64,000 bases of DNA, from the sequence record OL960580; one strand, 5' to 3'. Origin of the DNA: Escherichia phage vB_EcoM_SA21RB. This document shows positions 7,010 through 47,409 of this stretch, piece by piece. The stretch's first letter is position 1. Every line of letters starts with the position of its first letter. A program made the translations under genes and the position numbers. The notes under the pieces were generated by a model. It saw only the letters and a list, made by a program, of their open reading frames with translations, did no database searches and had not been told where the DNA came from.

Positions 7010-8575
7010 ATGACTATCAAAACTAAAGCTGAACTTTTGAACAAATGGAAGCCATTACTGGAAGGTGAAGGTTTACCGGAAATTGCTAATAGCAAACAAG
7101 CGATTATCGCTAAAATCTTTGAAAACCAGGAAAAAGATTTCCAGACAGCTCCGGAATATAAAGACGAAAAAATTGCTCAGGCATTTGGTTCTTTCTTAAC
7201 AGAAGCTGAAATCGGTGGTGACCACGGTTACAATGCTACTAACATCGCTGCAGGTCAGACTTCTGGCGCAGTAACTCAGATTGGCCCGGCTGTTATGGGT
7301 ATGGTACGTCGTGCTATTCCTAACCTGATTGCTTTCGATATTTGCGGTGTTCAGCCGATGAGCAGCCCAACCGGTCAGGTATTCGCACTGCGCGCAGTAT
7401 ATGGTAAAGACCCAATCGCTGCCGATGCTAAAGAAGCATTCCACCCAATGTATGGTCCAGATGCAATGTTCTCTGGTCAGGGTGCTGCTAAGAAATTCCC
7501 AGCTCTGGCTGCTAGCACACAAACCGTTGTAGGTGATATCTATACTCACTTCTTCCAGGAAACTGGTACTGTGTATCTGCAAGCTTCCGCTGTAGTAACA
7601 ATCGATGCTAGTGCTACTGATGCAGCTAAATTAGATGCTGAAATTAAGAAACAAATGGAAGCTGGTGCACTGGTAGAAATCGCTGAAGGTATGGCTACTT
7701 CTATCGCTGAACTCCAGGAAGGTTTCAACGGTTCTACCGATAACCCATGGAATGAAATGGGCTTCCGTATCGATAAACAAGTTATCGAAGCTAAATCTCG
7801 TCAGCTGAAAGCTGCTTACTCTATCGAATTAGCACAAGACCTCCGCGCTGTTCACGGTATGGATGCTGATGCTGAACTGTCTGGTATTCTGGCTACCGAA
7901 ATCATGCTGGAAATCAACCGCGAAGTTGTTGATTGGATTAACTACTCAGCTCAGGTTGGTAAATCTGGTATGACCCTGACTCCGGGTTCTAAAGCTGGTG
8001 TATTTGACTTCCAGGATCCGATTGATATTCGTGGTGCTCGCTGGGCGGGTGAATCCTTTAAAGCTCTGTTGTTCCAGATTGACAAAGAAGCAGTTGAAAT
8101 TGCTCGTCAGACCGGTCGTGGTGAAGGTAACTTCATTATCGCTTCCCGTAACGTAGTTAACGTACTGGCTTCAGTTGATACTGGTATTTCTTATGCTGCA
8201 CAGGGTCTGGCTACCGGCTTTAACACTGATACTACCAAGTCAGTATTTGCTGGTGTTCTGGGTGGTAAATACCGTGTATATATCGATCAGTATGCTAAAC
8301 AGGATTATTTCACTGTAGGTTATAAAGGTCCGAACGAAATGGATGCTGGTATTTACTATGCTCCATATGTAGCTCTGACTCCGCTGCGTGGTTCCGATCC
8401 GAAGAACTTCCAACCAGTAATGGGATTCAAAACTCGTTACGGTATCGGTATCAACCCATTTGCAGAATCCGCTGCTCAGGCTCCGGCTTCTCGCATCCAG
8501 AGCGGTATGCCTTCTATTCTGAATAGCCTTGGTAAAAACGCTTACTTCCGCCGTGTATATGTTAAAGGTATCTAA
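7010..8575 (+). CDS. 23: Major capsid protein gp23
   Basis: 521-aa ORF, same length as T4 gp23; strong codon bias consistent with a highly expressed gene. Confidence 0.96.
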   Translation: MTIKTKAELLNKWKPLLEGEGLPEIANSKQAIIAKIFENQEKDFQTAPEYKDEKIAQAFGSFLTEAEIGGDHGYNATNIAAGQTSGAVTQIGPAVMGMVRRAIPNLIAFDICGVQPMSSPTGQVFALRAVYGKDPIAADAKEAFHPMYGPDAMFSGQGAAKKFPALAASTQTVVGDIYTHFFQETGTVYLQASAVVTIDASATDAAKLDAEIKKQMEAGALVEIAEGMATSIAELQEGFNGSTDNPWNEMGFRIDKQVIEAKSRQLKAAYSIELAQDLRAVHGMDADAELSGILATEIMLEINREVVDWINYSAQVGKSGMTLTPGSKAGVFDFQDPIDIRGARWAGESFKALLFQIDKEAVEIARQTGRGEGNFIIASRNVVNVLASVDTGISYAAQGLATGFNTDTTKSVFAGVLGGKYRVYIDQYAKQDYFTVGYKGPNEMDAGIYYAPYVALTPLRGSDPKNFQPVMGFKTRYGIGINPFAESAAQAPASRIQSGMPSILNSLGKNAYFRRVYVKGI

Positions 8576-12693: not shown

Positions 12694-13374
12694 TTATTTT
12701 AATGTCACGAAAGAAGAGTTGCGTGTTTCACGAATTAAAACTGATCCGTCACGGTTAATGTAATAGATTAAGCTAAATAAAGTTTGGTGTGCTGACGCGT
12801 GTTCAAAACTAGTTGGGTGAGATTTCCAATCCGGAGTTTCAGCAATCCATTGATAAATCCACCAAGGAACAGTACAGAATCCTGGATTTTTTCCAATCAG
12901 CTGAAGATTCGGACTAAAGTTTTCCGGAAGAGTAAATACAGACGGCTTTTCAGATTCAATAATCTCAGCTACGGCCTGCTCGAATTTTTCTTCAACAAAA
13001 GGAGTATCTTCAATCAAAACATCGGTATTTTCAGGAATTTTATCCTTTTCTACTACTTCAATTTTAATGTCAGATTTAACCGGAGAATCAATCAGAAGTG
13101 CTGCTTCTGGATTGACTTCTTCATCGTCATATTTTAATCCTTCTGCAGCATCAGCAGCATTAATTAAGTCTTTAATAGATAACCCATCAGTCTCTGGCAT
13201 AGGTTCACTAGCGAGCTTCTGGAGGGCTTCTTCAATATCAACAACGATATTATCAAAAGATTTATTCTTTTTGACCTTTATACCAAACTGTTCAGCATAT
13301 TCAGCTAATTTAGCTTTAGCTTCTTTATTATCATCAAGAGCCTTCAGCTCTGCAATATAATCTTTATCTATCAT
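12694..13374 (-). CDS. inh: Inh, inhibitor of prohead protease
   Basis: 226-aa ORF between hoc and uvsW as in T4. Confidence 0.8.
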   Translation of the reverse strand: MIDKDYIAELKALDDNKEAKAKLAEYAEQFGIKVKKNKSFDNIVVDIEEALQKLASEPMPETDGLSIKDLINAADAAEGLKYDDEEVNPEAALLIDSPVKSDIKIEVVEKDKIPENTDVLIEDTPFVEEKFEQAVAEIIESEKPSVFTLPENFSPNLQLIGKNPGFCTVPWWIYQWIAETPDWKSHPTSFEHASAHQTLFSLIYYINRDGSVLIRETRNSSFVTLK

Positions 13375-23796: not shown

Positions 23797-23845
23797 ATGT
23801 TATATCAGTAAGATTACTATAACACAACACGAGGGACTTGTAAAC
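23797..23845. repeat. 49-bp promoter-leader repeat, copy A (48/49 identical to 39071-39119)
   Basis: Direct comparison of the two sequences. Confidence 0.9.
23816..23845 (-). promoter_or_regulatory. T4-type early promoter (GTTTAC -35, 18-nt spacer, TATAGT -10)
   Basis: Reverse complement of the plus-strand sequence; sits upstream of the 96-aa ORF. Confidence 0.65.
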
Positions 23846-31801: not shown

Positions 31802-32167
31802 TTAAATATCAAATTCGTTAAGAACTACATCAAAGATCGCTTCAAGATGCTCAGGTTTAGCTCGGTTGCTCAGGATGTGACGAATCCAAGTTTTAACCAG
31901 AAGCTTACGATTAACGCCATTCCAGCAAGGATGAGTCCCCAAATCGCGTTGACGAAAATCATCATCTAATGCGATTTTAAAAGAAGAACCTTCTTTCGTG
32001 ATTGAAACCGTGATGCCATTTTCAAATCGCATATAAACGTAGTTAGGAGTCATATACTGTTCAATTTCGCATACTGATCCATTTTGATGTTTCCAAAGGC
32101 AGATAGTATCAATAGAACCTGCAATACCGTTAGAAACATATTTACGTTCAAAGTTGATGTAGTTCAT
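31802..32167 (-). CDS. Hypothetical protein (30.x)
   Basis: 121-aa ORF downstream of an early promoter. Confidence 0.65.
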   Translation of the reverse strand: MNYINFERKYVSNGIAGSIDTICLWKHQNGSVCEIEQYMTPNYVYMRFENGITVSITKEGSSFKIALDDDFRQRDLGTHPCWNGVNRKLLVKTWIRHILSNRAKPEHLEAIFDVVLNEFDI

Positions 32168-32204
32168 TTTTATTCTCCGAGATGTTTAATTGCGGTACAG
32201 GTAT

Positions 32205-32233
32205 ATAATATCATATCCTGTACCAAAGTAAAC
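32205..32233 (-). promoter_or_regulatory. T4-type early promoter (GTTTAC, 17-nt spacer, TATTAT) flanked by an 8-bp inverted repeat
   Basis: Reverse complement read directly; inverted repeat GGTACAGG / CCTGTACC at 32194-32201 and 32217-32224. Confidence 0.65.
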
Positions 32234-32235
32234 AA

Positions 32236-32568
32236 TTATTTTACTACTTTCCAGTGCTGCATGTCAAGTTTACCAACTTTTTTCATCTTCTCAATTAAGC
32301 GTTCGGCACGTTGGCGAGCTGTAACATAATACCATTCACCCAATTCATTTTGTTCAATTTTTCCAACGATTACTGTATTCAATTCATAAATCCAACCAGT
32401 AAAGAAATTATGAACTTGAATTGTAAAGGTGAAATCTGTTCCCATACCTTCTGTTGTTTCTACTTCAATAATATCACCTTCAACTGCCATTAAGAACCAC
32501 ATAGTTTCATCATATTTACCATTGAAGCATTTAGTTTTAACTGTGGCGTTCAGATTAATCGTTTTCAT
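32236..32568 (-). CDS. Hypothetical protein (30.x)
   Basis: 110-aa ORF. Confidence 0.65.
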   Translation of the reverse strand: MKTINLNATVKTKCFNGKYDETMWFLMAVEGDIIEVETTEGMGTDFTFTIQVHNFFTGWIYELNTVIVGKIEQNELGEWYYVTARQRAERLIEKMKKVGKLDMQHWKVVK

Positions 32569-32595
32569 TTTATTCTCCTTTGTTTGTGTAAGATA

Positions 32596-32625
32596 ATACT
32601 ATCACAAAGGAACCATACTGTAAAC
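32596..32625 (-). promoter_or_regulatory. T4-type early promoter (GTTTAC, 18-nt spacer, TAGTAT)
   Basis: Reverse complement read directly. Confidence 0.6.
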
Positions 32626-32642: not shown

Positions 32643-32674
32643 GGAAAATAAAAAAGGACTCCCGAAGGAGTCCT
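32643..32674 (-). terminator. Rho-independent terminator after 30.9
   Basis: AGGACUCC-UUCG-GGAGUCCU hairpin followed by a U-run on the minus strand. Confidence 0.75.
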
Positions 32675-32678
32675 CAAC

Positions 32679-32855: not shown

Positions 32856-33251
32856 TATAAATTCTCTTTTAAATGAAAATGCAGGACTTATTGGCATTGC
32901 CTGCGCAAGCCCTCAAGGGGAACATAGGTTTTGGATATTTAACGACAGGATAACCATAAACCCGTCATCATACCTTATAGCTCTTATCTGTTGCACACCG
33001 TTAGCTTAAAGGTTCCGGGTCCGATTTCTCGAGGATAAGATATATACTGATGGATATATAGGCCTTGAGGCGTACTCCCGATTGGCCATCACCTCGGGGT
33101 AGCATGCACTTGCCGCTATAAGAATAACATTCAAGAGGTACACCGTAAAACTGCCGGGGTCTTAAAACTATAATGATTCGCAAATCATTAATCAGACAGT
33201 TCGACGGCTCCTCGTTTTAACTTCACACTAAGGCAGTGACTCTCCAATAAA

Positions 33252-35764: not shown

Positions 35765-35794
35765 ATAATATCACAACTCTACCGTAAAGTAAAC
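35765..35794 (-). promoter_or_regulatory. T4-type early promoter (GTTTAC, 18-nt spacer, TATTAT)
   Basis: Reverse complement read directly. Confidence 0.65.
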
Positions 35795-39070: not shown

Positions 39071-39119
39071 ATGTTATGTCAGTAAGATTACTATAACACA
39101 ACACGAGGGACTTGTAAAC
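39071..39119. repeat. 49-bp promoter-leader repeat, copy B (48/49 identical to 23797-23845)
   Basis: Direct comparison. Confidence 0.9.
39090..39119 (-). promoter_or_regulatory. T4-type early promoter (GTTTAC, 18-nt spacer, TATAGT) upstream of alc
   Basis: Reverse complement read directly. Confidence 0.65.
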
Positions 39120-47379: not shown

Positions 47380-47409
47380 ATAGTATCACACTACTACCCT
47401 TCTGTAAAC
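47380..47409 (-). promoter_or_regulatory. T4-type early promoter (GTTTAC, 18-nt spacer, TACTAT)
   Basis: Reverse complement read directly. Confidence 0.6.

Follow-up and report, generated by a model that had tools for sequence, protein, structure and literature searches.

Results

The 30.7 locus and its early promoter

The 64,000-nt stretch of DNA analysed here (the window) represents a T4-like (Tequatrovirus) genome, and the 1 kb around the palindrome described below is 98.8% identical to phage W143 and ~96% identical to T4. All local genes are located on the minus strand and follow the order gp31, rIII, 30.9, 30.8 and 30.7, with the features relevant to this work listed in Table 1. An earlier note on this DNA had postulated an early promoter upstream of a 121-aa ORF; indeed, the ORF encodes gp30.7, and the promoter, P30.7, is of the early sigma-70 type. 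In T4 (NC_000866), both the promoter and the palindrome are identical to those in the window. The -35 element of P30.7 fits the T4-type early consensus TTTACW-N17-TAYWAT (PMC4122927), and the GGAG in the Shine-Dalgarno sequence (SD) of the early transcript 30.7 is a known RegB site (PMC9409239, citing Truncaite et al. 2006). Read on the minus strand, the region runs TAA-TT-GTTTAC-TTT-GGTACAGG-ATA-TG-A-TATTAT-ATA-CCTGTACC-GCAATTAAACATCTC-GGAG-AATAAAA-ATG. The transcription start given in Table 1 is a prediction, and no genome-wide transcription start-site dataset for T4 was found in the literature. The terminator scan of the window detected no terminator between 30.8 and P30.7, and read-through RNA entering P30.7 from upstream would therefore be expected.

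Table 1. Coordinates of the features at the 30.7 locus and of the window promoters whose -10 is enclosed by a hairpin
Feature	Position	Strand	Remarks
Gene 30.8	32568..32236	minus	
Stop codon of 30.8	32236..32238	minus	2 nt ahead of the -35 of P30.7
Whole predicted hairpin	32183..32234	minus	~21 bp; RNA minimum-free-energy folds
Outer stem, UGUUUA with UAAACA	32234..32229 with 32188..32183	minus	Pairs the -35 with the leader
-35 of P30.7, GTTTAC	32233..32228	minus	Early promoter
Hairpin middle, UU/AA, then a U.G wobble, then the 8-bp core	32227-32226 with 32191-32190; U32225.G32193	minus	
Repeat 5' arm (minus-strand sequence GGTACAGG)	32217..32224	minus	In the -35/-10 spacer
Inner stem, AUAUG with UAUAU	32216..32212 with 32207..32203		Uses part of the -10
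Extended -10 of P30.7, TG, A, TATTAT	TG 32213..32212; TATTAT 32210..32205	minus	
Apical loop, AUAU	32211..32208		
Repeat 3' arm (minus-strand sequence CCTGTACC)	32194..32201	minus	About -3 to +5 of P30.7
Predicted start of P30.7	G32198	minus	Approximate, placed by the usual distance from -10 to +1; lies in the 3' arm, 7 nt past the -10; ~129883 in T4
SD of 30.7, GGAG	32175..32178	minus	4 nt downstream of the hairpin base
Gene 30.7	31802..32167	minus	121 aa (gp30.7); ATG at 32167; served by P30.7
Hairpin enclosing the -10	-35 at 47408	minus	z -4.1
Hairpin enclosing the -10	-35 at 39118	minus	z -6.2
Hairpin enclosing the -10	-35 at 35793	minus	z -4.1
Hairpin enclosing the -10	-35 at 32232 (P30.7)	minus	z -5.3
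Hairpin enclosing the -10	-35 at 23844	minus	z -3.2

The nearby rIII-30.9 intergenic gap (32898-33251) is a mosaic, non-coding segment of 354 bp, only parts of which are present in many T4-like phages. Its relatively G+C-rich core (~32981-33115; 135 bp) is ~95% identical in Klebsiella/Raoultella phages whose gp30.7 is ~49% identical to that of T4. The gap has no Rfam match and a fold z of -0.9, and may represent non-coding DNA that is mobile or passed on horizontally.

The palindrome and its chance level

The coordinates and the perfect complementarity of the 8-bp inverted repeat reported around the -10 of P30.7 were confirmed by direct reading of the sequence. On the plus strand, GGTACAGG (32194-32201) and CCTGTACC (32217-32224) are separated by 15 nt, and the perfect repeat stops short of the flanking c32193 and a32225. 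The -10 falls within this spacer, ~1.5 nt off its centre, and the arms are unique within the window. An example of a replacement for GGTACAGG that would break the 5' arm and leave the -35, TG and -10 intact is GGTTGAGG.

The window contains 77 perfect inverted repeats of 8 bp whose loops measure 3-20 nt, as compared with 34.3 +/- 8.2 in dinucleotide shuffles; 9 of them have at least five G+C per arm, as compared with 1.1 +/- 1.5. A perfect repeat of at least 8 bp straddles a fixed point (+/-25 nt) at 1.4% of random genomic sites, and for a perfect run of at least 11 bp the chance drops to ~0.05% per site. With ~10 promoters in the window and a 1.4% chance at each site, the bare 8-bp palindrome is therefore not significant, and we count it as real because of its conservation in relatives.

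The palindrome is the core of a hairpin predicted for read-through RNA

In RNA minimum-free-energy folds, the palindrome forms the core of a longer hairpin, which begins 2 nt past the 30.8 stop codon and ends 4 nt ahead of the GGAG of 30.7. The inverted-repeat search also listed its outer repeat. The predicted stability of an 81-nt RNA is -20.1 kcal/mol (z about -4.6; 0/200 shuffles as stable), that of a 39-nt core RNA is -16.1 kcal/mol (z -5.33), and the hairpin persists in a 482-nt model of the read-through RNA started at P30.8. The earlier note had suggested a hairpin at the 5' end of the transcript. This holds true in that the palindrome does encode a hairpin, but its 5' arm lies upstream of the predicted +1, and for this reason the RNA of P30.7 itself cannot form it. 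Only RNA begun farther upstream, for example at P30.8, holds both strands, and thus only read-through RNA can fold.

An intrinsic terminator was considered for either strand and rejected. On its 3' side, the P30.7 stem is followed by GCAAUUAAACA (GCAAUUAAACAUCUC), which is not a U-tract, no T-run is present past the stem in either direction, and the terminator scan returned no call, so that canonical intrinsic termination is unlikely. Insulation of the 30.7 SD by the hairpin was likewise rejected, since the SD remained just as accessible when the 5' arm was scrambled in silico. The Rfam search returned only a sub-threshold match to mir-126 (22.8 bits versus a gathering score of 47.2; E 0.33), a match that we attribute to the shape of the hairpin alone.

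Pairing is retained and sequence replaced in gp30.7 relatives

Upstream regions of gp30.7 homologues were gathered from GenBank phages, IMG/VR and metagenomes, yielding 41 distinct upstream sequences; roughly 990 phage records carry gp30.7. In the T4 clade, with the arms GGUACAGG/CCUGUACC, and in a clade of 93% protein identity, the leader diverges completely but the core does not change; in the latter clade, the stem is lengthened to 10-11 bp (UUUGGUACAGG/CCUGUACCAAA). Within each of these two clades, the 8-bp core is nearly invariant.

In homologues that are 45-55% identical, the promoter directly follows the upstream stop codon and a repeat again straddles the -10, with arms of unrelated sequence. 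The layout in these distant homologues places the 5' arm in the spacer, the -10 in the loop and the 3' arm at or past +1. The arms are AUUGCUGAUUGA/UCAAUCAGCAAU in MHG19 (12 bp plus an outer 7 bp), GCUGAUUGAGUGU/ACACUCAAUCAGC in the Q7622 (Kanagawavirus) clade (13 bp), UUGGUGUAGGAGUA/UACUCUUACACCAA in the P545 (Marfavirus) clade (14 bp, including one G.U), GGUGAGGGUCU/AGACUCUCACC in L041, UUGGGUGGU/ACCACCCAA in the clade of Klebsiella phages, and CUCCGUUGUAU/AUACAACGGAG in S16 (Gelderlandvirus) and Pet-CM3-4 (Karamvirus). Across the relatives, both arm length (8-14 bp) and loop length (8-31 nt) vary while base pairing stays. Folds of the region from the -35 to the ATG in the hairpin-bearing clades reach -17 to -27 kcal/mol, with z of -3 to -7 in those hairpin-bearing orthologues that were tested against shuffles.

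Covariation is seen between clades, in which the registers differ, and in one lineage within the S16 clade. In the latter, represented by L056, the arms are CUCCGAGGUUU/AAACCUCGGAG as compared with CUCCGUUGUAU/AUACAACGGAG, with three pairs altered on both sides and all of them still paired. The RNAalifold pair table, computed from the MAFFT alignment A2 of the S16 clade, lists two L056 pairs as changed on both sides and the third on a gap; only two of the three compensatory pairs were scored because this run misaligned the L056 3' arm. The comparison with the promoter of related phages, which the earlier note had proposed as a check, thus came out in favour of the stem, which is kept in distant orthologues as pairing, with unrelated arm sequences. 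Judged by these comparisons, selection acts on sense-strand pairing and not on sequence.

Outside the Straboviridae, a gp30.7 homologue is present in the Klebsiella phage KaOmega (L024, Vequintavirinae; 701-1072; 31% identity, E 7e-11), behind another promoter region that lacks a similar hairpin (z +0.3).

Sense RNA tends to fold more stably than antisense RNA

In 35 of the 41 distinct sequences, across all hairpin-bearing clades, the sense RNA exceeds its antisense counterpart in stability, and three of four hairpin-less controls show the opposite strand asymmetry. Several single substitutions yield G.U pairs in the sense strand (L005, L018, L041 and L053). Changes of the A.C type occur in L044 and in the inner stem of L005, and these two hairpins are the weakest. 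The strand asymmetry, as computed from these sequences, favours a structure in the sense RNA over a cruciform, falling short of proof.

The hairpin and an upstream terminator tend to replace each other

The gene upstream of the promoter differs among relatives, with L060 and the 93%-identity clade having other upstream ORF ends, TuIa and Roth19 carrying a terminator module, and TuIa also an extra gene, 30.6A. Four distinct orthologous promoters follow a canonical terminator hairpin with a T-run (TuIa AJ621579, fHe-Yen9-01, Roth19 and L052), and none of them has a hairpin at the promoter itself (dG between -8.8 and -11.1, z about 0). The hairpin is present in 35 of 37 orthologues without a terminator (Fisher p 1.5e-4, uncorrected for phylogeny and resting on approximately three independent contrasts). 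L051 and L052 are near-identical except that the hairpin of one is swapped for a terminator in the other.

A similar distribution was found among the early promoters of the window, of T4 (1-78 kb) and of Q7622, where z is -3 or lower at 16/28 terminator-less promoters versus 0/6 terminator-preceded ones (Fisher p 0.014, uncorrected for phylogeny). P30.8 combines an upstream terminator with a weaker hairpin (z -1.8 to -2.6), and the exclusivity is thus not absolute.

In the deposited annotation of TuIa AJ621579 (L016), the minus_10_signal and minus_35_signal labels are swapped: positions 78-86 read GTTTACTCT, which is the -35, and 101-106 read TACTAT, which is the -10.

Hairpins at other early promoters

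A promoter scan for strict GTTTAC...TGnTAnnnT followed by an SD and ATG contradicted the claim that no other window promoter has a palindrome of this kind, since P30.8 has a repeat of its own and hairpins were found at 35793, 47408, 39118 and 23844 (Table 1; promoters are named by the position of the -35). Similar hairpins occur at about half of the early promoters of T4 and the window. T4 (1-78 kb) has seven more strong hairpins that enclose the -10 (20611, 8217, 73938, 65412, 62796, 57989 and 53942), and in Q7622 hairpins are present at three of five early promoters. P30.7 shares its promoter consensus with the other cassettes of the same genome, and its arms are private to it. No hairpin was found at three window promoters, namely 48136, which is preceded by a terminator; 51437, which starts a divergent unit beside gene 34 and is not preceded by a gene in the same direction; and 62841, which lies inside an ORF.

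P30.8 (minus strand; -35 at 32624, -10 TAGTAT at 32601..32596) has a perfect 8-bp repeat, TCCTTTGT/ACAAAGGA, at 32604-32611 and 32576-32583. Its 3' arm covers the SD of gene 30.8 (AAGGAG), and the RNA is predicted to fold at -15.2 kcal/mol (z -2.6). Read-through RNA from 30.9 would, according to this fold, mask the ribosome-binding site (RBS) of 30.8, although a terminator (32654-32675) precedes P30.8.

The arms at promoter 35793, GGUAGAGUUGUG/UAUAGCUCUACC, are in the same register as those of P30.7, and at promoter 39118 the 3' arm pairs with the SD (GAGGA). The cassettes at 39118..39078 and 23844..23804 (minus strand), although 15 kb apart and driving different genes, are identical over ~41 nt (GTTTACAAGTCCCTCGTGTTGTGTTATAGTAATCTTACTGA); such twins are the kind of repeated cassette, similar to a PeSL (promoter-early stem-loop), that was proposed to mediate modular recombination. 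At 13185 of T4 NC_000866 (L076), upstream of modA.2, a strong stem (z -3.6), in which the SD-AUG region is paired (GAUAGCUUCUG.../...GGAGGCUAUC), is located wholly downstream of the -10; unlike that of P30.7, it would also fold in the transcript of its own promoter.

Discussion

We consider it probable, at roughly 0.6, that the palindrome is the core of a PeSL-type stem-loop that is interleaved with P30.7 and acts in read-through RNA, where its precise function is putative. The 5' strand of the stem is embedded in the -35 and the spacer, the -10 sits on top, and the 3' strand extends over the start site and the first leader nucleotides. As modelled, RNA begun at P30.7 would start inside the 3' strand and stay unfolded, and read-through RNA would fold at ~-20 kcal/mol. 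The hairpin in the read-through RNA may then serve as an intercistronic barrier, doing the job that is elsewhere done by an intrinsic terminator hairpin. It could attenuate or pause transcription arriving from upstream or, after cleavage by RegB or an RNase, could provide the 30.8 message with a stem at its 3' terminus as a block to 3' exonucleases. Since the RegB site GGAG is located 4 nt downstream, a cut at this site would yield an upstream fragment with the stem at its 3' end. It counts against this reading that PeSL shuffling within promoters could, on its own, break the repeat in lineages that gain a terminator-bearing upstream module.

The tandem early promoters of T4 are a textbook case of sigma-70 promoters of very high strength, and the separation of their overlapping transcripts is poorly defined. 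If P30.7 works as we propose, its sequence from -35 to +10 would have a second purpose as one strand of a stem found solely in RNA begun upstream. The spacer and the initial-transcribed sequence of phage promoters would thus not be readable as determinants of promoter strength alone, and the alternation of hairpin and terminator would provide a testable handle on the function of PeSL stem-loops.

A broader proposition, which we regard as rather doubtful, is that U-tract-less hairpins enclosing the -10 and the start are general, selected insulators of T-even early units, interchangeable with intrinsic terminators. Any strong early promoter entered by read-through from the preceding gene would make use of them, and they would act co-transcriptionally, possibly by helping to remove or restart a polymerase that enters an occupied downstream promoter or pauses sigma-70-dependently at the embedded -10. 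Another possibility is that they mark processed 3' ends beside RegB sites. If true, such a mechanism would be distinct from both canonical termination and RBS masking.

The latter, as known from T4 e, soc, 49 and I-TevI, where the 5' half of an RBS-sequestering hairpin contains the promoter (review PMC3014915; McPheeters et al. 1986), is an unlikely explanation for P30.7. The hairpin in read-through RNA would hide the RBS of 30.7, and gp30.7 would be made only from immediate-early RNA initiated at P30.7. The layout matches, in that the promoter is inside the 5' half of the hairpin (PMC3014915). Moreover, in the clade of S16, Pet-CM3-4 and L056 the 3' arm is the SD itself (ACGGAG), and the predicted SD accessibility in the S16 clade is ~0.7 for the short RNA and declines to ~0.1 for the long one. 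Pairing of the spacer with the SD is also found at P30.8 and 39118, and at 8217, 65412, 62796 and 53942 of T4. In the window and in T4, however, the P30.7 stem ends 4 nt before the GGAG and its 8-bp core 15 nt before it. The predicted accessibility of the P30.7 SD is 0.67 in the long versus 0.62 in the short RNA, and it is unaltered by in silico scrambling of the 5' arm.

There is also little probability that the repeat has no function of its own, being either accidental or a side product of recombination between promoter cassettes, in which case it would travel with a conserved strong promoter. In line with such an origin, 8-bp repeats arise by chance at 1.4% of sites, with 34 expected per window, the T4 and 93%-identity clades have an invariant core, like the remainder of their promoter, and PeSL cassettes do recombine (PMC2839356). 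Yet at least six unrelated arm pairs of 9-14 bp have been independently kept at the orthologous promoter, and the flanking leader diverges freely whereas the arms stay complementary. The compensatory changes in L056 and the contrast between the hairpins (z -3 to -7) and the terminator-preceded orthologues (z about 0) further argue against a passive repeat.

We deem it quite improbable that the repeat is an element of the DNA itself, which would tune promoter strength through cruciform extrusion or altered local DNA, for example with supercoiling. The arms flank an AT-rich centre that holds the -10, and in T4 they form a true DNA palindrome. However, many orthologous stems contain G.T wobbles that pair only in the sense strand, and in 35/41 sequences it is the sense strand that folds better. 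Loops of 8-31 nt are unfavourable for cruciform extrusion, the link with an upstream terminator has no rationale at the DNA level, and many strong early promoters lack any repeat.

An operator for a dimeric phage or host DNA-binding protein overlapping the -10, where the earlier note had suggested a protein-binding site, is highly improbable and found no support: despite the perfect dyad symmetry across the -10 and the still unknown shut-off mechanism of T4 early promoters (PMC2988021), half-site sequence, length and spacing are unconserved among orthologues and among the hairpin-bearing promoters of one genome, the 23 bp from centre to centre are atypical for such operators, and conservation of pairing but not of sequence favours a nucleic-acid structure over a sequence-specific protein site. 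A LexA/SOS box was dismissed on inspection, as the arms give ACAG-N17-CTGT, which has the wrong order and spacing as compared with CTGT-N8-ACAG.

Stem-loops preceding ipII, ipIII and denV were reportedly described by Valerie and colleagues in 1986. The P30.7 stem resembles stabiliser hairpins and Rho-independent terminators, being a stable stem right behind a stop codon that appears interchangeable with a terminator in relatives. It differs from them by having no U-tract, and any stabilising effect is putative. With e, soc, 49 and I-TevI, P30.7 shares the principle that the origin of the transcript decides the structure, its own transcript being without the 5' strand. In those genes, however, the promoter is late and the SD or AUG is in the 3' arm, whereas P30.7 is early and its SD is outside the stem; the orthologue of the S16 clade and the neighbouring P30.8 do fit this type.

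The closest comparison is with the PeSLs of RB49 and phi1, in which an early promoter is combined with a stem-loop (Arbiol et al. 2010, PMC2839356). Their subclasses have the stem either in the -35/-10 interval or overlapping the -10; they were proposed to terminate or attenuate transcription arriving from upstream, and the cassettes recombine (PMC2839356). PeSLs were subsequently extended to T4 and PST, with the stem-loops placed immediately ahead of the promoter (Comeau et al. 2014, PMC4122927), and the stem at T4 P30.7 may already be noted in Truncaite et al. 2006 (Virology 344:378). Similarly to PeSLs, P30.7 is a sigma-70-type early promoter between an upstream stop codon and a downstream SD/ATG, its stem overlaps the -35, the spacer, the -10 and +1, and an AT-rich tract (GTAGTAAAATAATT) is located ahead of its GTTTAC. 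It also lies in a plastic region full of small ORFs, the 30.x cluster, which varies among phages. In contrast to the stems of T4 and PST, which are just upstream of the promoter, the arms of P30.7 straddle the -10, with the 3' arm over the start site. Furthermore, they are promoter-specific, without the shared G(n)/C(n) or AGNA/TCNT motif, and are not followed by a U-tract. In its structure, P30.7 is a PeSL, for which termination or attenuation by the stem is a putative function.
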